Source: a virus | Virus record (IMG/VR): IMGVR_UViG_3300031269_000117 | Span: 1-19,164 of that record | Direction: 5' to 3' (one strand) | Length of the DNA: 19,164 bases | Shown here: positions 1 to 19,164 of the stretch, one piece after another | Layout of the letters: the number at the start of each line of letters is the position of its first letter | How positions within the stretch are numbered: position 1 is the stretch's first letter | The notes under the pieces: model-generated | The model's database searches: none | The model's input: the letters and a program-made list of their open reading frames with translations, nothing else | What the model was told of the DNA's origin: nothing | Position numbers and translations under genes: made by a program

Positions 1-127
1 GTGTTTTAACCGGCATCAAATACGACGCTAATGGCGCAGAAGTAGAAGTTAGAGTAGCATTAGTTAAAATGGTGGGTGGGTTGTAATGGCTAAAAAAGCC
101 AAAACTAAATCAATCATTAAAAAGGTT
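1..127. repeat. Terminal direct repeat, copy 1 (exact duplicate of 19038-19164). Best read as the wrap-around of a circular or circularly permuted genome.
   Basis: Both window ends read gtgttttaaccggcatcaaatacgacgc...caatcattaaaaaggtt identically for 127 nt. The repeat covers the 3' end of the 140-aa ORF (its stop is at 84-86) and the 5' end of the 51-aa ORF. Confidence 0.95.
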
Positions 128-241
128 GATACTTTAGAGGACTCACAATTAGACGTGGGTTCTTTAAAAAAAGAGACTAAAGTTTCTGACAAAAAAGTGA
201 CCGGCCGTAGGGCTATTAAAATTAATAGATTTAAAAAATAG
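86..241 (+). CDS. Small Lys-rich protein of 51 aa (MAKKAKTKSIIKKVDTLEDSQLDVGSLKKETKVSDKKVTGRRAIKINRFKK), unknown function, in the head module.
   Basis: Below the ORF-track size cutoff. Its ATG overlaps the upstream stop (TAATG). A ggtgggtggg SD-like tract lies 5 nt upstream. It fills an otherwise empty gap between the decoration-like gene and the capsid gene. Confidence 0.55.
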   Translation: MAKKAKTKSIIKKVDTLEDSQLDVGSLKKETKVSDKKVTGRRAIKINRFKK

Positions 242-250
242 GGGAAACAG

Positions 251-1120
251 ATGAACACTAATAACTTGGTTCTAAAAGAAGTCGATCAATACATGGCGGA
301 TTATGCTCCAGCGTATACTGCTTTAATGCCGGCGTTTATGAGAACTTCACAGTCTTATGCTGCAGAGGTAGGAAAGATCAACTTTAAAAGAGTGTCTGTG
401 ATAGGTGATATCAGATCGAAAGTAATTGATCCAAAAGATACGGCTATTAAGCTTTTAAAAGTCGGCCAAGATAGAAAGTCTTTTAATAAGTACTTTTTAG
501 GCTCAAAGTTTACAAGCTCTGAGCTGCAATCCTCTGATGAGATTGAAGAGGCGATCAAGATGTTTCTTGATGAGCATAATAGGCAGAGTGATGAGATCTT
601 TTTAACAGGGGATGGCACAAATGATTCAAACACTTTAAACAACGGTCTTTTATACTCTCAAGACAAAAACTACTTTAAAAGAGCTAGTGCCGAAGTTGAA
701 AAAGATGCTAATGATTCACATCTTGCAGATCTTTACGATAAAATTACTGATGCGATTGATGAGGCAGATGATCTTGATGGTCAAAAGCTTGTTCTTTTTT
801 ATGGTGACAGACCTATCAAAGAGCACAAGGGTTTGTTTGTTGAAACTAAAACTTCTTTAATTGAGACTTTAGTAGGTGCTAACGCGGGTGTTTCTTTTGG
901 AAAAATTCCTAAAGAAATAACTCCATCGGGTGAAGCTGGTATTTTGGTTTGTAACCTTGATCAACTTAAACTCAACTACACTGTTTTAGCTCAGCTTCGT
1001 GACAGAGATGTCAACAAAGAAGACATGTACTTTTGGGCTAACTTCATAATGGGTTCAAGCATGCTGGAAGTTAAAAACAAAAAAGGTATTGTTAGACAGC
1101 CTTTGACTTTCGAAGCTTAA
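251..1120 (+). CDS. Putative major capsid protein (289 aa).
   Basis: The call rests on position: it follows scaffold, decoration-like gene and small ORF, as in lambda Nu3-D-E or SPP1 gp11-12-13. It has an agggga RBS and is followed by the strongest intrinsic terminator in the window. No family motif was recognised by eye. Confidence 0.6.
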   Translation: MNTNNLVLKEVDQYMADYAPAYTALMPAFMRTSQSYAAEVGKINFKRVSVIGDIRSKVIDPKDTAIKLLKVGQDRKSFNKYFLGSKFTSSELQSSDEIEEAIKMFLDEHNRQSDEIFLTGDGTNDSNTLNNGLLYSQDKNYFKRASAEVEKDANDSHLADLYDKITDAIDEADDLDGQKLVLFYGDRPIKEHKGLFVETKTSLIETLVGANAGVSFGKIPKEITPSGEAGILVCNLDQLKLNYTVLAQLRDRDVNKEDMYFWANFIMGSSMLEVKNKKGIVRQPLTFEA

Positions 1121-1142
1121 GTTTTAGTTAACTTAAATTTAC

Positions 1143-1180
1143 AAAGAGCCCGGCCCCACTAGGGTATGGGCTTTTTTTTT
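1143..1180 (+). terminator. Rho-independent terminator after the capsid gene.
   Basis: GC-rich hairpin (aaagagccc...gggct, with an inner ccc/ggg stem) followed by T9 at 1172-1180. Confidence 0.75.
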
Positions 1181-1188
1181 AGGGGGAC

Positions 1189-1449
1189 ATGGTGAGAGAT
1201 TGGATCAATAAAATTATGGGCATCATTGAAGAGTCTTCTTTAACAGACTCCGAGTTTGCTACTGTCCAATCTACTACAATTGAATACACTCAAAAAACTT
1301 TTGATGAGATAGCATTGATACTAGACTCAAGGGGGTCCATATCTGATTCAAGAAAGCGCCTAGCTTTTTTGTATAAAGCCAAGGGTTTTAATGTGGGTGG
1401 GGGTGATGACTTAGCAGTTTCTAATATTTGGATAGGAAGTGTGCTTTGA
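1189..1449 (+). CDS. Hypothetical head-tail connector or head-completion protein (86 aa).
   Basis: aggggg RBS, and located between the capsid gene and the neck/tail genes. Confidence 0.35.
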   Translation: MVRDWINKIMGIIEESSLTDSEFATVQSTTIEYTQKTFDEIALILDSRGSISDSRKRLAFLYKAKGFNVGGGDDLAVSNIWIGSVL

Positions 1450-1949
1450 TAATTGAACTTTCTAAAGACTTTAAGAAAAGTTATATAAAAACTTTAGAGC
1501 GTTATAATTTTGACGTGGGGGTTTTGGAAGACAAGCCTCACTATGAAGCTGAGTATAATTCAATCAATGAGGAGCCTTCGTTAAAACAGTACGCCGGTGG
1601 TCCTTCTAGAAAGCAGAGCAGAATAAAGTCTGGAAAAACAGTAGGTGAGGTCTTGGTTGATAATATGAAAAGGCTACAAATTAATTTTGTACTTGATCCT
1701 TTCAAAAGAAAGAGCGAGCCTTTGACTAGATTTACAGAGTCGTTTTTAAAGCTAGCCTACGGGGATGGGGAAAAAGTTAGAAGGGTTGAAAACTTGCTTC
1801 AAGCCCTTATTAGAAATCCTATATTGAAACGAGAGTATGGTGACAGTAAAAGCTCAACCTCTGATGCAAAAGGTTTTAACAGACCTTTAATTGACACTTC
1901 ACAAATGTTTAGAGCTATAAGAGCTAAGGTTAACAATGCTGGAAAATGA
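1446..1949 (+). CDS. Neck / head-tail joining protein, HK97 gp10-like or Mu G-like.
   Basis: The C-terminal motif NRPLIDTSQMFRAIRAKV resembles the (I/V)DTGxLxxSI signature of HK97 gp10-type proteins. The TTG at 1446 overlaps the upstream stop (TTGA) and has an aggaag RBS. The ORF track allows an alternative TTG at 1428. Confidence 0.5.
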   Translation: MIIELSKDFKKSYIKTLERYNFDVGVLEDKPHYEAEYNSINEEPSLKQYAGGPSRKQSRIKSGKTVGEVLVDNMKRLQINFVLDPFKRKSEPLTRFTESFLKLAYGDGEKVRRVENLLQALIRNPILKREYGDSKSSTSDAKGFNRPLIDTSQMFRAIRAKVNNAGK

Positions 1950-2322
1950 GATTGTTGATTTATTCAAAGCTATTTTTGATATAAAAAAGGTCACTCTTGA
2001 AGAGCCGGGTGAGGCTTTAGAGCAAGGTGTTTTGTTTATAAGTGTAGACTCATATACTGAAGACACTAAAAACGGTTTTGTTAAGGGCGTACTGAGAGGT
2101 AATGCTAAGGTCTATAGTCAATCAAACAAGTTGCCTTTAGGTTTTTTTACTAGGAAACTTAGAAGTGCCGGGGTTGATTTGACTAGAGATTTATTTTGTA
2201 CGGACTTTGAGATGAACTTGAATGTGTTTCAAAATCTTATCGAGAGATCTTTTAGCTTCACATATTTTTACACAAGCGAATACGATCCAGAGCAAGGGTC
2301 ATTAAATGAGATAGTTTTTTAA
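1936..2322 (+). CDS. Hypothetical neck or tail-terminator protein (128 aa).
   Basis: The call rests on synteny only. It overlaps the upstream gene by 14 nt. Confidence 0.3.
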   Translation: MLENEIVDLFKAIFDIKKVTLEEPGEALEQGVLFISVDSYTEDTKNGFVKGVLRGNAKVYSQSNKLPLGFFTRKLRSAGVDLTRDLFCTDFEMNLNVFQNLIERSFSFTYFYTSEYDPEQGSLNEIVF

Positions 2323-2333
2323 AAGGGGAACAC

Positions 2334-3266
2334 ATGTCTAAGAATATTTTACTGGATTATTTTTTCAACGTAGAGGCCATAACGCCTACATCACAAGCGT
2401 CTACTGCTTTTTTAAAGCAAGCTTGTATAGTTGTAAACTCAAACTCGGGTGGGACTGATGGTGACATAACTCAATGCTCAACCATTGCTGAGATAGAAGC
2501 TGTTACTGACAATGAAGATGCTAAAGAACTTTTAGCCGGTGGCATGTCTAAAATATATGTGCTTCAAAATGACGACTTAGATTTACAATCGATACTAGAT
2601 GCTTTTGGCCCTGAGTTTTTCACATTAATTATCTCAAGCGACTTTAATGATACTAATATAACAGGCATGGACCTTGGTTTGTTCAAAGGTGTTGTTGGTG
2701 TTTCAAGTGCAACGGAGTCTTTCTTAGAAGCTCAAGCGGTTATTCCTAAAAGAGTTTCATTTTTTACTAAGACAGAAAACGGGGCAAAAAATATGTGTTA
2801 CGCTTTTGGAAAGCTTCTCTCTAGTTTTACATGGAGAAATCAGCAATATGTAACCATGCCTTATGATGATGAGGTTGTAACTCTTGGCAAAGCCGAGTCT
2901 TATTTTGATGATAAAATCTCCTTTGTTTTAAACGACAAAGAGTTTGGAAAAAGGCTAGGTCTTTTTGCAGTTGGTGGGAAGGCTATTGTTGCTCCTTATA
3001 TTTTAAAGAATTTAGAAATAGACATGCAATCAAGAGCTCTTTCTTATATCTCTGGGAATCAACCACAGTACACTATTAAAGAAGCAACTCTGATTGAAGA
3101 CGAGCTAAGTCAGGTTATACAGGGATTTGTTGATAGAGGGCTAATAACAATAGGTACGGTTTCAATTGCAGTAGATCAAGGCAACTTCATTGCAAGCGGT
3201 CAAATAAACGTATCCGAACCTACAGGGCTTTGGAGATTTAAAGCAGAACTTAAGCAGACACTTTAA
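2334..3266 (+). CDS. Major tail structural protein, possibly a compact tail sheath (310 aa).
   Basis: aagggg RBS. It is followed by a ~140-aa tube-like ORF, then the chaperone and tape measure. This is the sheath-tube-chaperone-TMP order of P2- and Mu-type myoviruses. Confidence 0.4.
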   Translation: MSKNILLDYFFNVEAITPTSQASTAFLKQACIVVNSNSGGTDGDITQCSTIAEIEAVTDNEDAKELLAGGMSKIYVLQNDDLDLQSILDAFGPEFFTLIISSDFNDTNITGMDLGLFKGVVGVSSATESFLEAQAVIPKRVSFFTKTENGAKNMCYAFGKLLSSFTWRNQQYVTMPYDDEVVTLGKAESYFDDKISFVLNDKEFGKRLGLFAVGGKAIVAPYILKNLEIDMQSRALSYISGNQPQYTIKEATLIEDELSQVIQGFVDRGLITIGTVSIAVDQGNFIASGQINVSEPTGLWRFKAELKQTL

Positions 3267-3279
3267 TTAAGGGGTAGTA

Positions 3280-3699
3280 ATGATTTTTAAGATATATGAT
3301 TGTGATTTTGGTATTAAAGTAAAAGGTGTTTCTTATGACTTTGAGCATGTCTCAAGTCTACAGATTGAAGATCCTGAGCGTAACAGAATAACCAGGGGCG
3401 CCAACGCTAGAAACAAAGTTGGCCTAGCTTTTAAGGATGGCTTAAAAGAGCCTAAGCGTTGGACTATTCCAATTCTTAATATGAGCTTAGAGCTTAAAGC
3501 TGTTTTAGATGATGCCTATGATAATGTCACAAGAGTTGAATGTTACTGTATAGACAGAAAAGACGGGTCTTCTAAGATTGCAAAATCAGCTGTGCTTTCT
3601 AACAAGCCTCAACAACTAAACATCGAAGACAATGCTGAGAGCTTAGAAGTGATGTTAGAGTTTGAAACTTTTGATTCAAGCGAGAATCACAAGTCATGA
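3280..3699 (+). CDS. Putative tail tube protein (139 aa).
   Basis: Its size and its position directly upstream of the frameshifting chaperone fit a tube protein. The predicted beta-rich sequence ends ...LEVMLEFETFD, which loosely resembles XkdM-type tube proteins. Confidence 0.4.
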   Translation: MIFKIYDCDFGIKVKGVSYDFEHVSSLQIEDPERNRITRGANARNKVGLAFKDGLKEPKRWTIPILNMSLELKAVLDDAYDNVTRVECYCIDRKDGSSKIAKSAVLSNKPQQLNIEDNAESLEVMLEFETFDSSENHKS

Positions 3700-4070
3700 T
3701 TAAAGTTAAAGAGCTTAAAGGGTTTAAATCTCTACGAGCTCTTAATGTTTTTAACACTTTACTGATAGGCTTAAAGATGCTGCCGGCTTATCAAAGGTAT
3801 GACTTTGAAGAAATGCTTTTAGCTATACATGATATGCCTGAGAGTGATCAAAGAAAGTGTATGAAAGAAGCGGCTCTACTTGTTGAACTAGACGAGAGCG
3901 AGGTCGAGTCTTTAATCTCTTTTTGCGTTGATCCCAATGGGGTTCCGTACACTAAAGAGAACTTAAGAAATCTTGAGCCTAATAAGATTGTTGAGATGAT
4001 AGTCGCTGTTTGTATGGAGATATCAAAGTTTAAGATTGATCTCATAAGTGATTCTGAAAAAAAAAACTAA
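3696..4070 (+). CDS. Tail assembly chaperone, short form (lambda G-like).
   Basis: It sits immediately upstream of the tape measure, is acidic, has an ATGA overlap start, and ends in an A10 slippery tract. Confidence 0.7.
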   Translation: MIKVKELKGFKSLRALNVFNTLLIGLKMLPAYQRYDFEEMLLAIHDMPESDQRKCMKEAALLVELDESEVESLISFCVDPNGVPYTKENLRNLEPNKIVEMIVAVCMEISKFKIDLISDSEKKN

Positions 4071-4195
4071 AAAATTGGTCAGTTGATCCAAGATCTGTTT
4101 TTTCCAAAAGGCCTAATTTAAGTTTAGAAGATTGTTTAAACATTTCTTTTTATGAAACATATTGCAGCGACGCGATGGAAGGGGCTTTAACATAA
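3696..4195 (+). CDS. Tail assembly chaperone, -1 frameshift-extended form (lambda GT-like), slipping within A10 at 4057-4066.
   Basis: The -1 frame (codons from 4061) stays open for about 44 codons: KKLKNWSVDPRSVFSKRPNLSLEDCLNISFYETYCSDAMEGALT. It stops at TAA 4193-4195, which overlaps the tape-measure ATG (TAATG). Without the frameshift, 4071-4194 would be an unexplained 124-nt gap in a very compact operon. Confidence 0.7.
4057..4066 (+). promoter_or_regulatory. Slippery homopolymer (A10) for programmed -1 ribosomal frameshifting.
   Basis: The sequence is g aaa aaa aaa ac at the 3' end of the chaperone ORF. An A AAA AAA heptamer is a canonical slippery site. Confidence 0.65.
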
Positions 4196-5166
4196 TGTTT
4201 AAAAGTGTAATGAAAGTCACCCCCAAAATAGACAAGCGCGGTTTAGACAAAATGGAGAGGTCTTTATCTCAAAGGTTTAAAAGAGTTGCTAATGGTTTTA
4301 GTAAAGGTTTTGCTAAAATTTTTAAAGGGGGTGCTTTCATAGGAGCCGCCCTTGCTTTTGTTGATAAGCTTTTATCACCAATAAAAGAAGTGAATGAAGC
4401 ACTGGAAAGAACATTGCAAAGTAATGATTCAATCTCAACCTTTGCAGCTCAGTTAAATACGACAGCTGGGAAGCTTCAAAAGCTACAAGCTATTGTCGGC
4501 ACAGGAACAGGTCTCACTCAAGACAAGCTTTTAGATATACTGACAAAGTTTCAATTGGGTCTAGCAGAAGAAAGAAAGACACCGGGGTCAATGGGTCTAA
4601 AGGACTTCACTGAGTTTGGTGATGTTTCTGATGCTTTCTTTTCTTTCATACAGTCAATGAAGTCTGCTAACGATGATGATAAAAACCTTGTCACTAAAAG
4701 AGTTTTTGGTGATGAGGGGGTGAAGGCGTTAGCTGAAGCTTATCAAATTGATGTTGGGCAAATAATGAAACAAAGCGGCTTAGACAAAGTTAGCTTTGAG
4801 GCTTTAGATAAAAGCATTGAAAAGATAGCAGCTCTTTCTAACATGTCTGATGCTCTAAAAGCCGGCCGACAAACTCGTGATATTATCGATAAGGCCAGGG
4901 TTTTAAACGAAGGTATTATAAGAAGTAGAGAAGACAAAGCAGCTCTTGATTTAAAGCGGGAAAATGAAAGGTTTAAAAGCTACCAAAACCTTCAAAATCT
5001 AACCAACACAGTTGATAACATTTTCATTGCAGTTGAGGGTATGGTTGCTAAGCTTGGTGAGTTTATAGGTATGGCTACACCTTGGATAAAAAAAGTTGGC
5101 GGCTTTATAGACGAGACAAGATCAAGCTCTTGGTTTAAGGGTTTGTTTAAGTGGGGGGGGAAGTAG
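4195..5166 (+). CDS. Tail tape measure protein (about 323 aa, which is short).
   Basis: It follows the chaperone, is helical and coiled-coil rich, and has a Gly/Ala hydrophobic segment (GGAFIGAALAFV). The ATG at 4195 is preceded by a ggaagggg RBS. The ORF track's TTG at 4162 is a less likely start. Confidence 0.7.
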   Translation: MFKSVMKVTPKIDKRGLDKMERSLSQRFKRVANGFSKGFAKIFKGGAFIGAALAFVDKLLSPIKEVNEALERTLQSNDSISTFAAQLNTTAGKLQKLQAIVGTGTGLTQDKLLDILTKFQLGLAEERKTPGSMGLKDFTEFGDVSDAFFSFIQSMKSANDDDKNLVTKRVFGDEGVKALAEAYQIDVGQIMKQSGLDKVSFEALDKSIEKIAALSNMSDALKAGRQTRDIIDKARVLNEGIIRSREDKAALDLKRENERFKSYQNLQNLTNTVDNIFIAVEGMVAKLGEFIGMATPWIKKVGGFIDETRSSSWFKGLFKWGGK

Positions 5167-5714
5167 TGCTTAACGGTTTAGATCCTGTATTGATTTTTCA
5201 ATTCAAAACTTTAATAAGCGGCGTTAGTGATAACATCAAAAACATACCAATTGTCTCTGACATCCCCACCTTGGTAGAGGAGCCCCCTATACCAATTTAT
5301 TTAAGCGAAAATTTAACAGGTCTTTTTATAGACAGTGAAGATAAAAACCTAGACATTGAAACAGACATTGAAGAATCAAGCGACTCAACTAAAGAGCCCT
5401 TGGTGACTCAAAAAGGTGTGACAACTTCTGTGTCTATAAACATACAGGCCAACAAAAATTCAATCGGTTTAAATCTTTTGAATAGCCTTATAGACCAGGC
5501 TTTTTTAAAACTAAGAAACAACCTTTATACTATAAGCTATCTCAACGGTTCTACTACTGTTTTCAGAGGAAGAATACAAAGCTATAGAGTAAATCAAAAC
5601 GCTGATAGTGAGCTTGTAAACATTCAGCTTATACTAAACAAGGGAAAGCCTAGGCCTCAAGGGTCTCCTACAAATCCCTTTGTTACTAGAGAAGAAAACT
5701 TAGACGTGTTATGA
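5166..5714 (+). CDS. Hypothetical distal tail or baseplate hub protein.
   Basis: It is the first gene after the tape measure. The GTG at 5166 overlaps the TMP stop (TAGTG) and follows a G8 SD-like tract. GTG at 5151 is an alternative start. Confidence 0.35.
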   Translation: MLNGLDPVLIFQFKTLISGVSDNIKNIPIVSDIPTLVEEPPIPIYLSENLTGLFIDSEDKNLDIETDIEESSDSTKEPLVTQKGVTTSVSINIQANKNSIGLNLLNSLIDQAFLKLRNNLYTISYLNGSTTVFRGRIQSYRVNQNADSELVNIQLILNKGKPRPQGSPTNPFVTREENLDVL

Positions 5715-5971
5715 ATTATTTTTGGTATCGAATTTTTAATGAAGCTGATTTTAATAACGTTGATTACAACGGAAAAACCTACACTCTAAATTTAGAAGGA
5801 TTAGGTTTGAGAAGAATCCTTGTGACTAAGAAAAAACTCTTAGGCATAACCTATGAGGACACCTACCTTCCTTTGTCACTAAACAATAAAAACCCATTTT
5901 ACTTTAACGATAAGGCTATATTTAAAAATTCAAGTGGGAATGTTTTCTTAGGATTTAGAGATGATAGTTAA
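5711..5971 (+). CDS. Hypothetical tail or baseplate protein (86 aa).
   Basis: ATGA overlap start and location within the baseplate block. Confidence 0.3.
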   Translation: MNYFWYRIFNEADFNNVDYNGKTYTLNLEGLGLRRILVTKKKLLGITYEDTYLPLSLNNKNPFYFNDKAIFKNSSGNVFLGFRDDS

Positions 5972-6401
5972 CTGTGAGCATGGTTTCTATACTTTTTATG
6001 AGACTGATGTGGGTCAAATTAGTAACTTTATACTAAGGTCTGGTTTTAGTTTATTTAAGAAAAATAACTACTTTGTTTTTGATGCCTTAAAAGATGCTGA
6101 GGATTTTAGCATAAAAGGACTTCCTTATTTAAATGCTGTTAGTAAAAAAAACTATCAAGGCAAGATGGGGGAAGTGTTTAGGTCAAATGATTTTGTTTTT
6201 GATTTTACAAGTGATTTAATAAAAGACAGGAATTCTGTCACAAGTTTTAATGACTTAATGTTAAGCGGTGACAGGTATGTTTCAAAGGGTCTTGTCTTGC
6301 CGGGCTCTTTTACTCAAGGGGGCAAAAAGGTGATAGGCTACACTTGTCATGTCTCAAGGCTAACTAACAGTTTCACATATAGCGAGGTTGATTTTGTCTA
6401 G
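5961..6401 (+). CDS. Hypothetical tail or baseplate protein (146 aa).
   Basis: Start overlaps the upstream gene; located within the baseplate block. Confidence 0.3.
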   Translation: MIVNCEHGFYTFYETDVGQISNFILRSGFSLFKKNNYFVFDALKDAEDFSIKGLPYLNAVSKKNYQGKMGEVFRSNDFVFDFTSDLIKDRNSVTSFNDLMLSGDRYVSKGLVLPGSFTQGGKKVIGYTCHVSRLTNSFTYSEVDFV

Positions 6402-6750
6402 GTGTTTAAAAGCAAGGCTAAGCTCTAAGGGAGAGGTTATCTACAGCGATAAGGTTGTATCTGATGTCGACATCTTAAGTGAAGGAAACGCTGAGAGTGA
6501 AGGTGTTTTAGTTTTAGATAAAGAGCTTATTTTTTATCTTGCAAGCTCTGCTAAAGACATTAAGAAAGCTCTAATAGAGGTTTCAAAAGGATTGTCTGAG
6601 ATCTCAACCTCACTTGATAAGCTTGATAATGCCGGCTATCTGGTAGGCGCATCGGGAGCTGTACCGGGCCCACCGCTTTTAACTTTAAACATTAATAATA
6701 TAAATAACATCAGAGGAAAGATTGATGATCTAAAGGATGCTTTAATATGA
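6388..6750 (+). CDS. Hypothetical baseplate or spike protein (120 aa).
   Basis: TTG start (6388 or 6394) overlapping the upstream gene. The call rests on synteny only. Confidence 0.3.
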   Translation: MILSRCLKARLSSKGEVIYSDKVVSDVDILSEGNAESEGVLVLDKELIFYLASSAKDIKKALIEVSKGLSEISTSLDKLDNAGYLVGASGAVPGPPLLTLNINNINNIRGKIDDLKDALI

Positions 6751-7064
6751 TTGACATTGTGGCACCGAGTGAGGAAGGCCTGGACCAGGGAGTTGTTTTT
6801 ACAGACACAACAAGAGCTGCAAATCTTTTGAGTGTACAGCTTAACAGTTTAAACTTTGCTCCCGAATTAGGTATAGATTTTGATTACTTTTTGCGAGAGG
6901 ATTTAGAGATCCAGAACGAAAGTTTTAGAGGGTATTTGGTAGAGGTTTTAAGTGAGAGAGGCATTAGTGTTATATCAATTATAACAGAGGTTGAAAGTCT
7001 TTATCAAAAATTTACAATGAACATAAAAGATCAGGAAACCTCTTCTGATTTATTAGTGAGGTAA
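6747..7064 (+). CDS. Putative baseplate wedge protein, gp25/W-like (105 aa).
   Basis: Its size and its position directly upstream of a J-like ORF fit this family. The segment LNFAPELGIDFDYFL loosely resembles the P-x-(F/Y)G motif region of gp25-like proteins. Confidence 0.35.
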   Translation: MIDIVAPSEEGLDQGVVFTDTTRAANLLSVQLNSLNFAPELGIDFDYFLREDLEIQNESFRGYLVEVLSERGISVISIITEVESLYQKFTMNIKDQETSSDLLVR

Positions 7065-7066
7065 CA

Positions 7067-7879
7067 ATGAGCTATTCACAGGAAAACGGATACTTGCCAA
7101 GTGACTTTCAAACAATAATGGGCGCTTTAAGAGTTAAAATAAATGAACAGTTTGGCACCACATACACATCAGAAAACTTTGAAGGCACTAACTTTTATAA
7201 GTACTTCTACGCTTTAGCACAAAAGGTTCAAGACAATGAGGTTTTAACTGCTGAGATTTTTATCAAACTTCAAGACTATATAGCTTCAACAAATGAAAGA
7301 ATATCAAGACCTGTAAACACAAATACAGGAATCATAGATAGGCTTAAGGTTTTAGGATACACCGCTAGTGTTAAAAAAATTATAGAAGCTGATGCCGGAA
7401 AAATTAATATATGTATTGATGTGGACGATTCAGCGGATGATTATGCTACTGTAAAAACTGAGATCGCCACTCTGATTTCTCAAATAACAGTAGCCGGGTG
7501 TGTTACTCAAGGTGATGAAAGTGAAACTATTGTTTTATCTAACGGGCAAAGTTTTGATTTTAAGTTTCATTTGCCAAACAAGATACCAGTTTTATTAAGG
7601 CTTACAATTGAAACAAGTAAAAACAATCTTAATTTAATCGGCGATCCTGATGATACAAAGTTTAAACTTATAGAAAACATCAATGCTAGATACAGGCTTG
7701 GCTTGGACTTTGAGCCTAAAAAATACTTTGACATTGACGATGATGCGCCATGGGCTGGAGATATAAAGTTAGAGTGGAGTGATGATGATGGGGCAACTTG
7801 GTCAGATGATATTTACGATGCAACTTTTGAAGATCTTTTTACATTCGGTCTTGATGATATAACTTTAGTGGAGACTTAA
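7067..7879 (+). CDS. Putative baseplate J-like protein (270 aa).
   Basis: gaggt RBS. Size and order match W-J-I-fibre as in P2. Confidence 0.4.
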   Translation: MSYSQENGYLPSDFQTIMGALRVKINEQFGTTYTSENFEGTNFYKYFYALAQKVQDNEVLTAEIFIKLQDYIASTNERISRPVNTNTGIIDRLKVLGYTASVKKIIEADAGKINICIDVDDSADDYATVKTEIATLISQITVAGCVTQGDESETIVLSNGQSFDFKFHLPNKIPVLLRLTIETSKNNLNLIGDPDDTKFKLIENINARYRLGLDFEPKKYFDIDDDAPWAGDIKLEWSDDDGATWSDDIYDATFEDLFTFGLDDITLVET

Positions 7880-7880
7880 A

Positions 7881-8429
7881 ATGCCTGAGTTTTTTAAAGG
7901 TGATGATTTAGAAAACAAGTACTTTAATGTGGGCTCTAATTTATTTGATCAAATAGAGACTGAAAAGACATCGTTTTTTAATGACTGTTATGAAAACAAA
8001 CTCCTTGGTGAAATAATTCACAAGTCTAAGATAGCCCCTTTATCAAATGCTATACCTTTAGATGTTTTTAAAGACTCCTTTAATGCAATCTTTAATATAT
8101 TTTTAGAAGCCGGATCATTTGAAGGCTACTTAACAGTTTTCAAAGCAATTTTTGGCCCTGATGTGGATGTGACATTCACAGTACCCGCACCCGGAAAACT
8201 TGGAATAGTAATTGAAGCTCAAGGCCTTTTAACTTTTAACTTGGCAGCTAGAAAAATTGTTTCTGATGCCTATGTGTTTGAGCCCTTAGTCGATCACAAT
8301 GATAACAATATTGTTGTTAACTTTATCAGAGGGCTTTCTTCTCAAAGTGAAGTAGAGATAATGCTTAATGAGTTAGTGCCTCAAGGCGTATGGACTGACA
8401 TAGATTTAACTATAGGTGGGGGTGTTTAG
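7881..8429 (+). CDS. Putative baseplate/tail protein I-like (182 aa).
   Basis: It lies between the J-like ORF and the tail fibres. Confidence 0.35.
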   Translation: MPEFFKGDDLENKYFNVGSNLFDQIETEKTSFFNDCYENKLLGEIIHKSKIAPLSNAIPLDVFKDSFNAIFNIFLEAGSFEGYLTVFKAIFGPDVDVTFTVPAPGKLGIVIEAQGLLTFNLAARKIVSDAYVFEPLVDHNDNNIVVNFIRGLSSQSEVEIMLNELVPQGVWTDIDLTIGGGV

Positions 8430-9091
8430 TGTCTAATAAAACTATTAATGAATTACAACTAATTGATGAGGTTAGTAGTGGGGTGAACTTAATAGGTGAT
8501 GATACTATTCAAACCTATAGACTAACTACAGCTCAACTAAAAGCCTTTATAAATAAAGAAGTGAATGAAAGAATTGATTTAATTGAAGCTGACAAGTGGG
8601 TCACAAGAGATCGAATGAATCAAAATTCAGTAGGGTTTTCACAGCTAAATTTAAAGGATAACTTTCAAGAAAGAAAAGGTTTAACAGGTTGGTTGGGTCC
8701 TTTAGAGGATAACTTTTTAATAGCAGCCGGCACTCAAGGGGGTGTTAACATAGCTGCCGGTACCGGTGATCAATTCGGAGTTACACAAGAGTGGGGTTTT
8801 TTAGTTACTTTCGGAGCTGATTTAGAAGTGATAGGTCCTGGAGCTATAGACGTTAAGTTTTCAATCAACAATGATACCCCCGCGGACAATGTGAGAACTG
8901 TTAGCCTTGTTGGGACAACACCTTCTAATTTAGGCATGAGTGGGACTTTTTCAAAGAGTGAGTTTTTTACTTTAAACAATGTTGGCTCTGGTATTAAAAG
9001 TTTTAGTTTAAAAGTTGCTAAAAGAAATTCTGGTCAAGCGTTTTTTAAAAACGCATACTGGACAATGATCATGTTTAATAACAAAGCTTAG
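8429..9091 (+). CDS. Tail fibre / receptor-binding protein, paralogue 1 (220 aa).
   Basis: The GTG start overlaps the upstream stop. The N-terminus MSNKTINELQLIDEVSSGVNLIGDDTIQTYRLTTAQLKAFI matches the common fibre N-terminal anchor pattern (ITxLxxxxxLxGxDxxxxxxxxTxxxTxxQL) and is shared with the next ORF. Confidence 0.6.
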   Translation: MSNKTINELQLIDEVSSGVNLIGDDTIQTYRLTTAQLKAFINKEVNERIDLIEADKWVTRDRMNQNSVGFSQLNLKDNFQERKGLTGWLGPLEDNFLIAAGTQGGVNIAAGTGDQFGVTQEWGFLVTFGADLEVIGPGAIDVKFSINNDTPADNVRTVSLVGTTPSNLGMSGTFSKSEFFTLNNVGSGIKSFSLKVAKRNSGQAFFKNAYWTMIMFNNKA

Positions 9092-9101
9092 GAGTTATAT
9101 T

Positions 9102-9662
9102 TTGAGTAATAAAAAAATTACAGACCTTCAATTAATATCAACCTTAGATGATGATGTAAACCTAGTCGGTGATGATACTATTCAAACATATAGGTTTACT
9201 TTAGCTCAGCTTAAATCTTTTATAAACCAAGAGATACAAAGCAATGACTGGGTTACTACAATTAGAATATTAAATGGAGCAGTTACCGGGCCTAAACTTG
9301 GCATAGGTGCCGGCAATATAACTGAAAGCGGTTCGGATACCAACGGTAGATATATAAAGTTTGAGGATGGAACAATGCTACAATGGGGGGAAGTTGAAAC
9401 AACTCAAGGCGTAAACATATCTAGAGGTTCTCTTTTTATCAGATATGGAAGCACGATTACTTTTCCAGAAGAGTTTAACTCAGTTCCAGAAGTTTTTGTA
9501 AACTATAAAAGTAATTCAGGGTCTATAGACGACAGAGAGTTTTGGGCAACAGGTGCAACACCTACGACAACAACATGTCCAACATGCCTATGGTCTCCGA
9601 CATCAGTAGGTTCGGCTACGCATGTAATTTCATGGAATGCAATAGGAAGGTGGAAAACTTAA
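9102..9662 (+). CDS. Tail fibre / receptor-binding protein, paralogue 2 (186 aa).
   Basis: aggag RBS with a TTG start. The N-terminal ~45 aa is homologous to the preceding ORF, including an identical 20-nt stretch (ggtgatgatactattcaaac). The C-terminal domain is unrelated. Confidence 0.6.
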   Translation: MSNKKITDLQLISTLDDDVNLVGDDTIQTYRFTLAQLKSFINQEIQSNDWVTTIRILNGAVTGPKLGIGAGNITESGSDTNGRYIKFEDGTMLQWGEVETTQGVNISRGSLFIRYGSTITFPEEFNSVPEVFVNYKSNSGSIDDREFWATGATPTTTTCPTCLWSPTSVGSATHVISWNAIGRWKT

Positions 9663-10109
9663 GTGTCTGAAGAAAGAAAAAACTGGGATGTTAAAAATTT
9701 AGGAGCGGGCGCTTCCATAGGTGGTGGTTTAGCTACGATCATAATTAGTTTAGTGATGAATTCAATGAACATGAACAACAAAGCTATGCAAACAGAGATG
9801 AACGCTAACAACAAAACTATGCGAGCAGAGGGAAAACTTGCAATCGAGCAAATTAAAAACCTCACTGATATGTTAATTCGTAGTGAAAAAAGAAGAGAGA
9901 AAGAACAATCAAGTGCTGAAAAAAAGTTTGAAGCTTTTCAAACCAAACAGGATAAAATCTTTGAGCTAATCACAAAAAGTACCAGAGAGATTTTCACTAG
10001 GGATGATCAAAACAGACATGTTGATTTTATCAATGAAAGATTTAAAAAAATTGATTTACAAATAATTGATTTAAAAACTGATTTAATAAGGCTTAAAAAA
10101 GCACAATAA
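9663..10109 (+). CDS. Single-pass membrane protein with a long coiled-coil ectodomain; candidate holin or i-spanin.
   Basis: GTG start after a ggaaggtgga RBS. One TMD (GAGASIGGGLATIIISLVMNSM) is followed by about 110 aa of charged heptad-like sequence. It opens the lysis block. Confidence 0.45.
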   Translation: MSEERKNWDVKNLGAGASIGGGLATIIISLVMNSMNMNNKAMQTEMNANNKTMRAEGKLAIEQIKNLTDMLIRSEKRREKEQSSAEKKFEAFQTKQDKIFELITKSTREIFTRDDQNRHVDFINERFKKIDLQIIDLKTDLIRLKKAQ

Positions 10110-10126
10110 CCAAAAAGGGGTATTAA

Positions 10127-10360
10127 ATGGAATTAAAAGAAGCATATAATGTAAAGCTACTAACTGATAAGTTAAAAGTTAGAGGTTTAGATTTAACTGA
10201 GGAAGCGGCTATAATTGCGCTAGATGAAGTTTTGGATTGGGTTAGTGAAAGTGCTACTAAATCCACAACCCCTTACGACAATTTAGTTGCAACAATCTTT
10301 CCACTTCTAAAAACAGAAGTGCTAAAACAGATTGATAAAATAGATGGCGAAGTTGGCTAA
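10127..10360 (+). CDS. Hypothetical protein (77 aa, acidic, no TMD).
   Basis: aagggg RBS with a clean ATG. Confidence 0.4.
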   Translation: MELKEAYNVKLLTDKLKVRGLDLTEEAAIIALDEVLDWVSESATKSTTPYDNLVATIFPLLKTEVLKQIDKIDGEVG

Positions 10361-10591
10361 GTGAATTTTCTAACTAGTCTTTTATCCTCAATTTTAAGAC
10401 CTATTATTCAACAAGAATTTAATGAGTTAAAAAAATGGTTAAAAGAAAGTTATTTAGAAAACGAGAAATTTAAAGAATTTGACTCCATTGCTATGGAAAA
10501 CATTTCGGCAATGGAGTCTGCAACTACACCGGAGGAGGTTAAGGCTCATGCGAGACGTATTTATCAAGAGCGCGCTAGGCTTAATCTTTAG
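10361..10591 (+). CDS. Hypothetical protein (76 aa) with a weakly hydrophobic N-terminus; possible partner of the overlapping lipoprotein.
   Basis: The GTG start abuts the upstream stop. Its 3' 44 nt overlap the lipoprotein ORF in another frame, as in overlapped spanin pairs. Confidence 0.35.
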   Translation: MNFLTSLLSSILRPIIQQEFNELKKWLKESYLENEKFKEFDSIAMENISAMESATTPEEVKAHARRIYQERARLNL

Positions 10592-10844
10592 CGGATGTAC
10601 AATCCTTCCTAAAGCACCAGAAATTAGAATAGGGGTTTATGATAACTACTCTAAAAACGAAAAACTAGACCATGCAAAATCTCCAGTGTTTCACATGATT
10701 GGTGCAAATGGTACTGAATTTGAAATACCTTGGAATTCAGAGTCGGCAAAAAATATGGTCTGCACTCCTAATAAAGATTATGAAAATCTAAACGCGTACT
10801 TAAGAAAAGTTTTTTATATACTAGAAAAAGAAATGAGAAAATAA
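10548..10844 (+). CDS. Predicted lipoprotein (98 aa); candidate o-spanin or superinfection-exclusion lipoprotein.
   Basis: The ATG at 10548 is preceded by a ggaggagg RBS. The signal peptide MRDVFIKSALGLIFSG|C has a lipobox-like FSGC. The ORF track extends the frame up to 10479. Confidence 0.55.
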   Translation: MRDVFIKSALGLIFSGCTILPKAPEIRIGVYDNYSKNEKLDHAKSPVFHMIGANGTEFEIPWNSESAKNMVCTPNKDYENLNAYLRKVFYILEKEMRK

Positions 10845-11522
10845 ATGAAACAAATAATTGAAATCTTATTAAAAATATTAGACGCTTTGTTAAAACCTAT
10901 TGAGGTTGTTAAAGACGCAGTAACAACTAAAACATATAGAAACAAAGCTATACTTATAAACGCAGCTAAAGAGCTAGGTGTTTTAGAGTGGGGAAATGGG
11001 TCTAATCCAAAAGTTGAAAAATACCTTGACCATGGGGCAAGAGGGGATAACAAAAACTCAGGCTTAAAAGACAACACCCCTTGGTGTGCTGGCCTTGTTG
11101 CTTACGTCTTAGAGACTGCCCCTGGAATCATTGGAACTAATCCTTTAGAAAACATTGGTTCTACTAATAGTTTAATGGCTAGATCTTACGAGAAGTGGGG
11201 AAAAAAAGTAACTAACCCACTTCCTGGGGACATAGTTACAAGGTATAGATCTGGAATAAACTCAGGCTTTGGTCATGTAGGGTTTTTCCTAGGCTGGACA
11301 AGTCCTTCAAAAAGCAGTTACTACTGTTTAGGTGGCAACCAAAATGACTCGGTAAATATATCTACATATAAAATGAACAAGGGTTCAAATTCAGGTCACT
11401 CTATGTTTAGAAGATCTAGTAAGCACGTTCCCATAACTTTAGATATGGAAAATGAGCTTTGGGATTTAGCTAATAGAATAATAAACGGTGAAGACGTAAG
11501 CGAAAACGCTACTGTTGTTTAA
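10845..11522 (+). CDS. Peptidoglycan hydrolase (endolysin), TIGR02594 / CHAP-NlpC-P60-like family.
   Basis: Motifs recognised by eye: ELGVLEW..GSNPKVEKYL...DNTPWCAGLVAYVL...ARSYEKWG...PLPGDIV...GHVGFFLG...LGGNQNDSVNI. These are the characteristic TIGR02594 pattern with catalytic Cys and His. Confidence 0.8.
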   Translation: MKQIIEILLKILDALLKPIEVVKDAVTTKTYRNKAILINAAKELGVLEWGNGSNPKVEKYLDHGARGDNKNSGLKDNTPWCAGLVAYVLETAPGIIGTNPLENIGSTNSLMARSYEKWGKKVTNPLPGDIVTRYRSGINSGFGHVGFFLGWTSPSKSSYYCLGGNQNDSVNISTYKMNKGSNSGHSMFRRSSKHVPITLDMENELWDLANRIINGEDVSENATVV

Positions 11523-11626
11523 CTAAGGGTATGTATGTCTTACACAAAAATGATATATTTGGATGAGGTATTCTTCGGACTGGAGTTTTATTCAGGTCTA
11601 GCAAAGTGTGTAGTCTAGTTATGCTT

Positions 11627-11659
11627 AAAAAAAAGGCCCCTAAATTTAATTAAGGGCCT
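11627..11659 (-). terminator. Intrinsic terminator for the minus-strand gene.
   Basis: A8 (11627-11634) is followed by a hairpin with arms aggccc and gggcct. On the minus strand this reads as a hairpin followed by T8. Confidence 0.6.
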
Positions 11660-11662
11660 AGA

Positions 11663-11692
11663 TTGATCTTAAAGTGCAACCAAGAAGATCAA
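11663..11692 (+). terminator. Possible terminator hairpin for the late (+) operon.
   Basis: 8-bp stem (ttgatctt / aagatcaa) with a 14-nt loop, followed by T-rich sequence but no clean T-run. Confidence 0.3.
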
Positions 11693-11728
11693 AACTTATT
11701 TAATTTTATTATATAATTTTTAAGAAAA

Positions 11729-11953
11729 TTAATCCTCTTCATCTGCTGGGTAGAAATGGCCCAGATCGAAAGAAAAAAATATAGGTGTTTGATTTATTTT
11801 AAGTTCAATGCTGTTTTCAATAGTTTGACCTTCACCAATAGCTCTTTCCACCTCTTCTCCCCAGGCATAAAGGGTGCCAGGGTAAAATTTACTTCCAAGC
11901 TTTTTTTCAAGCTGTGTTTTTAAAGTTTTATAACCTTTTTTGTTTAACTGCAT
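11729..11953 (-). CDS. Hypothetical protein (74 aa); the only minus-strand gene and a possible regulator.
   Basis: Strong RBS on the minus strand (ctaaggagaaaaaATG). It has its own terminator and is divergent from the early + operon. No HTH was recognised. Confidence 0.6.
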   Translation of the reverse strand: MQLNKKGYKTLKTQLEKKLGSKFYPGTLYAWGEEVERAIGEGQTIENSIELKINQTPIFFSFDLGHFYPADEED

Positions 11954-12118
11954 TTTTTCTCCTTAGTTACACATATACAGTAGCACATTTTTTAAGCAAA
12001 AACAATAGCCTAGTATCAATACAATACACTATTGAAAACATCTTATATCGATACAAAAAGTAAGAAATCTTACAATAGTACTTGATCAGGTACAGCCAAG
12101 TGAGTCTACAAAATAAGC

Positions 12119-12314
12119 ATCCTAATTGAGATCTAATCCTAATTAAAAATATCTGAGTATTTATTGGTGTGCTCAGAAAAATCAGATTGACTGCTAATCC
12201 TTAAGCACCCCTAATACTAACTTAAGCCCTCAAGTCTGGGTTTTTAACTACAGATTCCTTGCCTTTGGAACTGCCGCGCTAACGCTTGGACTGCTCATCA
12301 GCAAGCTGATCGAG
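12119..12314. promoter_or_regulatory. Cluster of short direct repeats and a palindrome in the divergent intergenic region; candidate operators, iterons or origin.
   Basis: ATCCTAATT occurs at 12119 and 12136, and CTTAAGC at 12200 and 12221. The motif TTG(G)A(A)CTGC occurs at 12187, 12265 and 12286. A palindrome ATCAGCaaGCTGAT lies at 12297-12310 and is extendable to 12294-12314. The 12240-12320 stretch is a GC-rich island in AT-rich surroundings. Confidence 0.4.
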
Positions 12315-12472
12315 CCTGTAAAATTTAGGCTATTAAAACTTTTAACTTCATTTAATTAAAGTGTTTAACTTATAAACAATGTCTAAAAGTTATACGATAT
12401 TTTAAACTCACATTGTCCTCAATACCAATACAGATGGCACCGATTGTGCATACTTATTTTTGAGGTGCAGAT

Positions 12473-12679
12473 ATGACAAAAAATAAAATAATTAAAAGAC
12501 GTTCAAACAATCAATCAAAGTATATAATAAGATGTAATGATGGTAGAACTTTGAAATCTAGATCAGATTCAGACCTTAAAAAAGACATTGGTTCTCTTGA
12601 TGTAGGCTTTACTGTTTTAAAAAATGTAGAGGGTACTACTTTATATGTTTCTGAATTTAAAGACTTGGTGCTTAAATAA
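12473..12679 (+). CDS. Hypothetical basic protein (68 aa); first gene of the rightward early operon.
   Basis: gaggtg RBS 6 nt upstream of the ATG. Confidence 0.5.
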   Translation: MTKNKIIKRRSNNQSKYIIRCNDGRTLKSRSDSDLKKDIGSLDVGFTVLKNVEGTTLYVSEFKDLVLK

Positions 12680-12761
12680 TATTTCAAATTGTAGGTAGTT
12701 TAGAAAAAATATAAATAATGATTGCAATCTTTTTAGTTCTAATCCAACTTGATTGCAGCTC

Positions 12762-12821
12762 CTTTGGGGGAGTTTGTTCTAAGACTTCTTGTTTTAAAAT
12801 GATAATTGTTCTCCCCCAAGG
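12762..12821. repeat. Long-range inverted repeat (stem-loop) upstream of the ERF gene.
   Basis: ttgggggag (12764-12772) and ctcccccaa (12811-12819) are perfect complements, extendable by a G-T and a G-C pair, with a 38-nt loop. Confidence 0.6.
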
Positions 12822-12897
12822 TGGCGACCTTAAAGAGTTTGACATCGTATTATAAATTCAATACATATCAAACAGGTCGTCATTCAAAGGAGAAAGC

Positions 12898-13644
12898 ATG
12901 GAATCATCAGCTTCAATTCAAGAAATTTATAAGTCATTAATCAAAGCACAAGGGGATTTCTCAGCAATTCCATTTGATGCTAAGAATCCTCACTTCGGAA
13001 ACAAGTATGTAAGTCTCACAGGGACTCAAGAACATGTCAGACCTATACTTTCTAAGCATGGCTTAGGTCTAATTCAATCGGTTGAAAGTCTAGATTCTAG
13101 ATACTATGTCCTGTCTAGATTGATACATGAGTCTGGCGAGTGGATTCAATCCTCTATAGAGTTGATGGTAGATAAGAAAAATATGCAAGGGCTTGGATCA
13201 GCCACAACCTACGCGAAGAGATATGCGGCACAAGCAATACTAGGTCTATCGGGTGATGAGGATGATGATGGCAATGCATCATCTAAGGACTACAGTCACA
13301 AAGCCCCTCCACAAACTCCGGCTTATAAACCTTTTGTCGGTAACTCTAATGACTTCAAACTTCCATTTGGTACAGCCAAAGGATCTAGTATTATAGACAT
13401 GGACATTAAAACTTTGTTTAAAATAAAATCTTGGATTAATGGTGAGGTTCAAAAAAATCCAAAAGCAAAAGCTAACCTTATGTACATCGACACCTTAGAT
13501 CATGTTGAAAACATAATTCATTTAAAAACTCCCTCAAATAACGATGATCAATTTTCTGAATTTACGCCACCCCCAGAAGAAGAAAATCAAGAGACTGTTC
13601 AAGATCAAATAAATAGATTGCAAGGTCAGTATGGGAAAAAGTGA
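12898..13644 (+). CDS. erf: ERF-family single-strand annealing recombinase with a C-terminal extension.
   Basis: aaggag RBS. The motifs match the P22 Erf family: KAQGDF..I..DAKNPHFGNKYVSL...VRPILSKHGLGLIQ...HESGEW...GSATTYAKRYAAQAILGLSGDEDDDGN. The C-terminal segment KLPFGTAKGSSIIDM...KSWI resembles the PFGKYKG...L.WL (DUF3820-like) module. Confidence 0.8.
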   Translation: MESSASIQEIYKSLIKAQGDFSAIPFDAKNPHFGNKYVSLTGTQEHVRPILSKHGLGLIQSVESLDSRYYVLSRLIHESGEWIQSSIELMVDKKNMQGLGSATTYAKRYAAQAILGLSGDEDDDGNASSKDYSHKAPPQTPAYKPFVGNSNDFKLPFGTAKGSSIIDMDIKTLFKIKSWINGEVQKNPKAKANLMYIDTLDHVENIIHLKTPSNNDDQFSEFTPPPEEENQETVQDQINRLQGQYGKK

Positions 13645-13677
13645 TAAAACAAAGCACAGTGTTGGGGGGGGATGATC

Positions 13678-13803
13678 ATGGATGTTTTTATAAGCTACCT
13701 AGTTTTTATATTAGAGATCTTATTTACAATGTCGGTGTTTTTATTTATGGGGACTGCCATTTACTATATGGATAAGTTTTCACATCAGGAGAAAAAAAAA
13801 TGA
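13678..13803 (+). CDS. Small hydrophobic membrane protein of 41 aa (MDVFISYLVFILEILFTMSVFLFMGTAIYYMDKFSHQEKKK).
   Basis: Below the track cutoff. A G8 SD-like tract (13664-13671) lies upstream. Its stop overlaps the next ATG (ATGA). An alternative in-frame ATG is at 13672. Confidence 0.5.
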   Translation: MDVFISYLVFILEILFTMSVFLFMGTAIYYMDKFSHQEKKK

Positions 13804-14066: not shown

Positions 14067-14098
14067 TATTAAGAGTGAAAGGTTAAGATCTACTAGAC

Positions 14099-14282: not shown

Positions 14283-14308
14283 GAATGATTTAAATTTTAG
14301 TTTAAAAA

Positions 14309-14968: not shown

Positions 14969-15000
14969 AAAATAAATAAACTTTGTGATATAGTCTTTCC

Positions 15001-17994: not shown

Positions 17995-18008
17995 AGGAGT
18001 CAATAAAT

Positions 18009-18695: not shown

Positions 18696-18700
18696 AAAAT

Positions 18701-19123: not shown

Positions 19124-19164
19124 TGGCTAAAAAAGCCAAAACTAAATCAATCATTAAAAAGGTT
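19038..19164. repeat. Terminal direct repeat, copy 2 (identical to 1-127).
   Basis: Exact 127-nt identity with the start of the window. Confidence 0.95.

Follow-up and report, generated by a model that had tools for sequence, protein, structure and literature searches.

The question raised by this locus is whether positions 2334-9662 of a viral DNA encode a complete contractile tail and, if so, whether that tail belongs to a genome of only about 19 kb. The DNA is IMG/VR record IMGVR_UViG_3300031269_000117, and the whole stretch of 19,164 nucleotides that was analyzed is called the window below. A first-pass annotation had read the window as a small myovirus, and every open reading frame (ORF) it named was found in the ORF listing on the plus strand with the same coordinates. 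Our analysis gives a probability of about 85% that the window is a complete, circularly assembled genome of 19,037 bp and that the virus is a dwarf myovirus of the lineage of Bdellovibrio phages phi1402 and MAC3UK. Positions 2334-9662 would then form a contractile tail module of 13 genes and 7.3 kb. The evidence that carries this conclusion comes from the ends of the assembly, the folds of two tail proteins, a conserved slippery site and the colinearity of the genes with those of phages described as contractile from electron micrographs.

The first 127 bases of the window (1-127) are an exact match to its last 127 (19038-19164). Terminal identity of this type is the usual sign of a circular de Bruijn assembly. 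Thus, the window is a circular assembly with a unique length of 19,037 bp, which bears out the size of about 19 kb given in the first-pass annotation. In addition, an independent contig of 17,161 bp from a second ENA sample was 100% identical to the window along its whole length. This contig spans 11611-19164 of the window and then continues into 1-9734, and so passes through the region of the ERF recombinase gene. Genomes of similar size were found among the relatives. For example, Logan contigs of 17.4-18.1 kb have the same order of tail and baseplate genes, and IMG/VR record IMGVR_UViG_3300045922_000672 has a terminal overlap of 123 bp, which indicates a circle of 18,196 bp, smaller than the window. 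A genome size of 19 kb is made credible by the closure of the circle, by the identical contig of the second sample and by the relatives of 17-19 kb.

The first gene of the module encodes a protein of 310 residues that had been proposed to be the sheath from its place in the gene order. An AlphaFold2 model of this protein, built from 41 homologues, had a pLDDT (predicted local distance difference test) of 72 and a pTM (predicted template modelling score) of 0.64. When the model was compared with the PDB by Foldseek, the top 50 sheath matches were all entries from contractile phage tails, tailocins or injection systems, with E values down to 1.5e-9, TM (template modelling) scores of about 0.5 and matched chains of sheath length. 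These included phage 812, PVC, AFP, R2 pyocin, diffocin and the Streptomyces and Anabaena systems, and also Mu, Milano, Sf14, phiCD508 and A-1(L). The best match in BFVD was an unnamed entry of 426 residues (E=1e-29), the length of a long-form sheath, and the entries following it were annotated as tail sheath. Thus, the 310-residue protein has the fold of a contractile sheath and not that of a siphovirus major tail protein. Direct Pfam and PHROG scans gave little more than hints for the tail proteins in general, and for this protein they gave weak matches (DUF3383 in Pfam, E=0.047; phrog_205 “tail sheath,” E=0.005). In addition, a profile of the sheath family found nothing meaningful among PDB sequences, so it was the fold comparison alone that worked.

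Homologues of the sheath were found in 10 records by a translated search of cultured phages. These records were MAC3UK and phi1402 (two records), matched at 49-54% identity in two pieces, Vibrio phages 1.155.O, 1.259.O, 1.190.O, 1.166.O and 236O40-1, and Dulem virus 29 (two records). The homologue is annotated as tail sheath in six of the 10, namely in MAC3UK and the five Vibrio phages. A larger set of 909 sheath homologues, identified among 5.8 billion proteins, fell into two size classes of about 310 and about 410-435 residues. The sheath of the window is without the insertion of about 120 residues that follows residue 111 in MAC3UK and phi1402, an inserted domain that brings the MAC3UK protein to 437 residues. 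Even the shortest chains among the leading structural matches, at 348-355 residues, exceed it in length. Nothing but the core domains is left in this short form. Residues 1-26 and 297-310 had low pLDDT in the monomer model, yet they are among the most conserved positions in the family. This fits N- and C-terminal arms that, in the assembled sheath, would link subunits by strand exchange.

The second fold comes from the baseplate. The 270-residue protein, for which 947 homologues were collected, gave an AlphaFold2 model with a pLDDT of 83, and its best Foldseek match in the PDB was the Pam3 baseplate chain 7yfz_A (E=4.5e-12). Further matches were baseplate chains of Bas63, PhiTE, XM1, Pa193, E217 and P1, as well as T4 gp6 (3h2t, 5iv5, 5hx2), the Anabaena and Algoriphagus injection systems, diffocin, phi812 and A-1(L). 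Contractile-system baseplate entries accounted for 32 of the 35 top matches. The J-like protein that had been predicted within 6747-7879 is therefore present, as a wedge protein of the gp6/J fold. Profiles of this family and of the 105-residue family encoded just upstream found nothing meaningful among PDB sequences.

The first-pass annotation had also proposed a tail assembly chaperone made in two forms by frameshifting, and the relatives confirm it. The zero-frame product is 45% identical to its MAC3UK homologue. Its ORF ends in GAAAAAAAAAAC-TAA, with a run of 10 A residues (A10) just before the stop codon. In the -1 frame the run is followed by 43 more codons and a TAA at 4193-4195 that overlaps the ATG of the tape measure gene. 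A poly-A run with a -1 extension of 35-52 codons was kept in 20 of 21 related loci, whose guanine plus cytosine (GC) contents range from 37 to 61%. The remaining locus has a T9 run in place of the poly-A. Chance is not the expected explanation for such a run in a genome of 61% GC. The same A-run site is found in the chaperone genes of phi1402 and MAC3UK, and the gpE/E+E' chaperone of P2 is a -1 frameshift product of the same type.

The virion modules of phi1402 (NC_015721, 23,931 bp) and MAC3UK (OR167113, 23,804 bp) are colinear with the window. Matches to MAC3UK were found for 25 of the 33 window proteins, in the same order from the large terminase to the second wedge protein and at 28-69% identity. 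Passages in two papers, both of which cite Ackermann et al. 2011, describe phi1402 as the smallest known independent myovirus, with a genome of 23,931 bp and a contractile tail seen by electron micrograph (PMC3391216, PMC3936114). The window shares the dwarf size class of these two phages and is about 4.8 kb (20%) smaller. Several differences were observed. The fibres of the window are shorter than those of phi1402 and MAC3UK, and no relation was seen beyond the baseplate genes. In the early region the window encodes ERF, whereas MAC3UK encodes a 380-residue “putative SSB protein.” The GC content of the window is 36%, compared with 50% in the two Bdellovibrio phages, which suggests a different host.

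Vibrio phages 1.190.O (MG592560) and 1.166.O (MG592533), cultured phages of the Nahant collection, have the same gene layout in 21.8 kb. Their sheath is also short (317 residues, typed as tail sheath by VirFam, 31% identical to that of the window), and they also carry an ERF recombinase. They are much more divergent than the Bdellovibrio phages, with tblastn matches for five of the 33 window proteins, and they are 2.7 kb larger than the window in records that are marked as partial genomes. A nucleotide search with the whole window found no match among cultured phages. In IMG/VR 23 related loci were found, on contigs mostly of 18-24 kb, and most relatives overall measure 17.4-24 kb. The same order of virion genes was seen in these 23 loci and in 13 loci from metagenome-assembled genomes (MAGs). 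ERF is encoded in both Logan contigs with a visible early region (18,071 and 18,062 bp), and three relatives of 17-19 kb in all were seen to encode it. More distant virion modules, whole from the large terminase to the wedge, with 35-41% identity and a sheath of about 305 residues, occur in four MAG contigs of 65-117 kb. The MAG contigs with the distant module are from Elusimicrobiota, Endomicrobia and Alphaproteobacteria and are presumably prophages, so part of the wider lineage is probably temperate.

From these comparisons, the window is a further and smaller member of an already known group of dwarf myoviruses and does not represent a new type of machine. All cultured relatives found are larger (21.8-23.9 kb), and the sheath of the window is shorter than those of phi1402 and MAC3UK. 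The first-pass annotation had considered the genome unusually small. This holds against the cultured relatives but is not without precedent, given the 23.9 kb of phi1402 and the 18.2-kb circle in IMG/VR. Public metagenome collections already contain genomes of about this size and below it.

Several observations weigh against the conclusion that the window is a complete genome with a working contractile tail. First, a 47-kb contig from another sample joins the same virion genes to an early region that differs from that of the window and is at least 30 kb long. Secondly, no replication initiator, polymerase or small terminase was recognized in the window, and independent growth is an assumption. 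Third, the 139-residue protein assigned to the tube had no profile match in the PDB, Pfam or PHROGs or in hhalign comparisons with Mu M and P2 FII, and profile searches with the 182-residue protein and the four proteins of the hub region likewise gave no significant match. Fourth, the largest ORF between the tape measure gene and the sheath initiator gene encodes 187 residues. A hub of the gp27 type (379-387 residues in Mu and P2) would thus be absent or greatly reduced. Fifth, the matches that make the 105-residue protein a likely sheath initiator are weak and come from a few members of its family. Lastly, contraction is predicted here from the genes, and the electron micrographs are of the relative phi1402.

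The first of these points leads to an alternative that we consider unlikely, in which the 19-kb circle is a reduced derivative or mini-phage of a phage of at least 47 kb, or one of the two assemblies is chimeric. The contig in question, ERZ27316648:k141_208335 (47,475 bp), contains window positions 13787-19164 followed by 1-11751 at 99.7-100% identity in two loci. Positions 11752-13786, the ERF region, are replaced, and the virion, lysis and late-early genes are otherwise the same. As far as the replacing part was read, it encodes YqaJ, a DEAD-box helicase, VRR_NUC, a second DUF3850 protein and a VapE-like primase-helicase. In composition the contig and the window are similar, with GC contents of 39 and 37%, respectively, and a tetranucleotide correlation of r=0.87. 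The window itself has no recognizable replication initiator or polymerase. Against this, the window closes on itself through its 127-bp overlap, and the contig of 100% identity from the second sample passes through the ERF region. The relatives that encode ERF are themselves 17-19 kb, with an 18.2-kb circle among them, and the cultured relatives are 21.8-23.9 kb. The mismatches to the 47-kb contig are not spread evenly but are concentrated next to one junction, on its inner side (13792-14033), and in a patch of 60 bp (11081-11141). Either recombination or the joining of an assembly graph at a shared segment would fit this pattern. In addition, a capsid sized for about 19-24 kb would be unable to hold 47 kb. 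The 47-kb contig may thus be a chimeric assembly, a larger sibling or a co-integrate. If both forms are real, one set of virion genes would serve genomes of very different length, which would imply either a flexible capsid size or a relationship of mini-phage and helper.

It is very improbable that the tail genes are those of a tailocin, of an extracellular contractile injection system or of a gene-transfer agent. The closest solved structures do include the sheaths of pyocin, diffocin, PVC and AFP, and the same virion module also occurs in large MAG contigs from bacteria. The large terminase (E=6.5e-37) and the genes at the portal, scaffold and capsid positions are, however, colinear with the tail genes on a closed circle. 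The presence of a large terminase indicates a virion that packages DNA and not a tailocin. Lysis and recombination genes are also present, and according to their records the cultured relatives form plaques on Bdellovibrio and Vibrio. The tailocin and gene-transfer agent readings were therefore rejected, since packaging, head, lysis and recombination genes share one 19-kb circle. The reading as a non-contractile siphovirus tail, with the 310-residue protein as its major tail protein, could appeal to the weak direct matches of that protein and to a tube fold that is undemonstrated, and it is effectively refuted by a sheath-fold protein encoded before the 139-residue gene (contractile-system chains fill its top 50 PDB matches and its BFVD matches are annotated sheaths), by a wedge of the contractile gp6/J type and by the relative phi1402, described in passages of PMC3391216 and PMC3936114 as a contractile-tailed myovirus from electron micrographs.

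Table 1. Features of the 19,164-nucleotide window discussed in the text. Sizes are in residues; coordinates are window positions.
Feature	Size	Coordinates	Strand	Basis
Tail sheath, short two-domain form	310	2334-3266	+	AlphaFold2 model and Foldseek
Putative tail tube	139	3280-3699	+	Place right after sheath, size, conservation
Tail assembly chaperone, zero-frame product	124	3696-4070	+	Between tube and tape measure genes
A10 slippery run (4057-4066) with 43-codon -1 extension		4057-4195	+	Sequence reading
Tape measure, from first ATG	323	4195-5166	+	Position, MAC3UK homology
Four small inner-baseplate ORFs, whole block		5151-6750	+	Conserved order in relatives
Inner-baseplate ORF 1	187	5151-5714	+	
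Inner-baseplate ORF 2	86	5711-5971	+	
Inner-baseplate ORF 3	146	5961-6401	+	
Inner-baseplate ORF 4	120	6388-6750	+	
Putative sheath initiator (gp25/gpW-like)	105	6747-7064	+	Directly upstream of wedge gene
Baseplate wedge, gp6/gpJ type	270	7067-7879	+	AlphaFold2 model and Foldseek
Putative second wedge (gp7/gpI-like)	182	7881-8429	+	Position, size
Tail fibre/receptor-binding protein, first paralogue	220	8429-9091	+	
Tail fibre/receptor-binding protein, second paralogue	186	9102-9662	+	
Capsid		251-1120		Colinear after terminase, as in MAC3UK
Neck-block ORF	86	1189-1449		
Neck/tail-completion protein	173	1428-1949	+	phrog_222 “tail completion or Neck1,” E=1.3e-7
Neck-block ORF	128	1936-2322		
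Sparsely coding stretch, about 950 bp		11523-12472		
Sole ORF of sparsely coding stretch	74	11729-11953	-	
GGTCAN repeat array		14099-14281		
DUF3850/ASCH-like protein		14669-14968		E=1.3e-16
Large terminase	504	15001-16515	+	phrog_38, E=6.5e-37; 51% identical to MAC3UK
Portal-position gene		16516-17511		Colinear after terminase, as in MAC3UK

Neighbouring genes of the tail region mostly abut or overlap, as is usual in a late operon (Table 1). The 139-residue protein, a putative tube by its position and size, is the most conserved of the tail proteins compared, with a mean column identity of 66%, the highest among five tail-protein alignments, and 69% identity to its MAC3UK homologue. The tape measure ORF is open from a TTG start at 4162 to 5166. 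Its product is 28% identical over the full length to MAC3UK_0026, annotated as “putative tail tape measure protein.” At about 1.5 Å per residue, its 323 residues give an estimated tail length of about 48-50 nm and about 12 sheath rings. A LysM match in this protein fell below the Pfam cut-off (20.0 bits against 20.9; E=6.8e-4). It covers residues 86-111 of the TTG-start ORF, or about 75-100 counted from the ATG (window 4450-4530), and may represent a peptidoglycan-binding element of the tape measure.

The four small ORFs that follow the tape measure gene keep their order across the relatives and, by position, are candidates for the tube initiator, plug, hub and spike. The 187-residue protein of the window had a weak match to the tube fold Phage_TTP_12 (E=0.026). 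When the families of all four hub-region proteins were pooled and scanned with Pfam, the one relevant result was a weak match to this fold in one relative (E=0.006).

The first-pass annotation had compared the next three genes with the W, J and I genes of P2. The J part stands on the wedge fold described above, W has weak family matches, and I is assigned by place and size. For the 105-residue protein, 127 relatives were collected by searching 1.84 billion representative proteins with a profile. The window protein itself had no direct match in Pfam, PHROGs or the PDB sequence profile search. Among 97 family members scanned, two matched PF10934 Sheath_initiator (“Contractile injection system sheath initiator”; best E=8.8e-4) and one matched phrog_120, a baseplate wedge subunit. 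Ten from among the most remote representatives were scanned, and none of these matched Sheath_initiator. The MAC3UK homologue is 50% identical and is annotated as “putative baseplate wedge protein.” An hhalign comparison of the family with P2 gpW gave a full-length, colinear and non-significant alignment, and IMG/VR scans intended to diversify the P2 gpW and Mu gp46 profiles yielded hardly anything but identical copies. The gene for the 182-residue protein adjoins that of the 270-residue wedge in all relatives, and hhalign comparisons of its family with P2 gpI and Mu gp48 were non-significant.

The two fibre genes are paralogous (BLASTP E=1e-19). Near-identical residues lie mostly in the first 45 or so residues, and the C-terminal domains differ. 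The second fibre contains a Gp53-like_C domain (E=7.8e-8, above the curated cut-off). This pattern suggests two receptor-binding proteins that would dock at one baseplate site through a common N-terminus.

The order of these genes was compared with that in three well-known phages. The first-pass annotation had called it the order of P2- and Mu-type myoviruses. For Mu this is correct, since genes L to S have the same contiguous order from sheath to fibre, with the four hub-region ORFs of the window in the place of the gp43-gp45 region. P2 has the same parts in a different arrangement of two operons in opposite order, with V-W-J-I-H-G upstream of the sheath operon FI-FII-E-T-U-D. Pam3, termed a “minimal myophage” (PDB 7YFZ), also matches. 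Its genes run from sheath gp13 and tube gp14 to tube initiator gp17, plug gp18, hub gp19, spike gp20, sheath initiator gp21, wedges gp22 and gp23 and fibre gp24 (PMC9942802), and this order corresponds one-to-one with that of the window. In both, the interval from the tape measure to the sheath initiator holds exactly four ORFs (gp17-gp20 in Pam3; PMC9942802), and the baseplate has the same small number of components. The two differ in the number of fibre genes (two in the window, one in Pam3), and Pam3 has an 84-nm tail and a 68-nm capsid, hence a larger virion (PMC9942802). There is no detectable sequence similarity between the window and Pam3, and the structural alignment of the wedge showed 15% identity.

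The W/J/I-type proteins measure 105, 270 and 182 residues in the window, 115, 302 and 176 in P2, and 145, 360 and 180 in Mu. From summed annotated coordinates, the tail module totals about 2,400 residues in the window, compared with about 3,700 in Mu and about 3,500 in P2. Mu and P2 each have a hub-sized gene, and the window has none. All hhalign comparisons of the window families with single sequences of P2 (W, J, I, FII) and Mu (gp46, gp47, gp48, M) were non-significant. With no sequence similarity detected, the window is not a member of the P2-like (Peduoviridae) or Mu-like families. By analogy of gene order, its tail likely works as a contractile tail of the Mu or Pam3 type.

A working model of the dwarf myovirus tail can be proposed from this analogy. 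The module would encode, in order, the short sheath, the tube, the chaperone in two forms produced by slippage at A10, the tape measure, four inner-baseplate proteins, a gp25-like initiator, gp6/J-like and gp7/I-like wedges and two fibres. During assembly, the spike and hub would nucleate the baseplate, and the tube initiator and plug would dock there. Six wedge triplexes, each of two 270-residue proteins and one 182-residue protein, would form a ring with the 105-residue sheath initiator, and the fibres would attach through their common N-terminal anchor. The tape measure would fix the length of the tube, with both forms of the chaperone assisting in tape measure and tube assembly. During infection, the wedge-bound fibres would sense the host and the wedge ring would open. 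The sheath would then contract from the baseplate upward and push the tube and spike through the envelope. This is the mode in which Mu, Pam3 and R-type pyocins work, and it is likely to apply here.

The genome shows the degree of reduction that a contractile tail can reach in nature. The sheath is reduced to its two core domains, the wedge has 270 residues compared with 660 in T4 gp6, the inner-baseplate proteins have 86-187 residues, and the whole virus, with its head, lysis and recombination genes, fits within 19 kb. One further suggestion is made tentatively, with the odds rather against it. The short-sheath ERF subclade (17-19 kb) may hold both the smallest genomes known among independent contractile-tailed phages, about 20% below phi1402, and the most reduced natural contractile injection machine (310-residue sheath, 13 genes, 7.3 kb, no hub-sized gene), with the same virion genes beside an alternative early region of at least 30 kb elsewhere. 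The understanding of how contractile tails act is unchanged by these results, and the description of phi1402 in 2011 had already made the lineage known. The main value of the genome is as a natural minimal contractile machine worth structural study. Engineered injection devices could draw on it as a compact chassis or as a list of parts, and it is a good target for cryo-electron microscopy, in particular for what replaces a full-size hub.

The head genes follow the terminase in the same order as in MAC3UK. The capsid protein is 45% identical to the MAC3UK “putative major capsid protein.” The homologue of the 173-residue protein is annotated as a neck protein in MAC3UK, and that of the Vibrio phage is typed “Ne” by VirFam. 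By their position, the ORFs of 86 and 128 residues on either side of this gene would complete a three-gene neck block between capsid and sheath. In the large terminase, the PHROG match covers residues 153-497 and leaves the first 150 or so residues outside. This N-terminal part (window 15001-15200) resembles, by eye, a helix-turn-helix region. Since no separate small terminase gene was recognized, DNA recognition may be fused to the large subunit.

The 225-residue protein at the lysis position is recognizable as an enzyme of the peptidoglycan hydrolase type. It matched the tail-lysozyme family phrog_1259 (E=1.8e-23), with a CHAP match below threshold, and the recombinase of the early region matched ERF with E=2.9e-21. 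No integrase was recognized in the window, where the small ORFs were searched non-exhaustively, and a transfer RNA search of the window found no genes. The overall GC content is about 36-37%.

Several minor features were observed in the early region. Directly upstream of the large terminase gene lies the gene for the DUF3850/ASCH-like protein. Its MAC3UK homologue is annotated as RNA-binding, and a second copy is present in the 47-kb contig. The sparsely coding stretch listed in Table 1 has a single ORF, which is the only sizeable minus-strand ORF of the window without an overlapping plus-strand gene. The stretch falls in the interval 11001-13000, where GC skew is near zero, and is likely a regulatory or origin region. 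The match to the 47-kb contig ends inside it, at 11751. Between genes for 88- and 70-residue proteins there is an array of about 30 hexanucleotide units of the form GGTCAN, with higher-order periods of 24, 30 and 54. The glycine-rich frame of the array has no start codon and contains a stop, and so the array is probably non-coding. It may consist of protein-binding repeats or act as a replication origin, and it is unchanged in the 47-kb contig.

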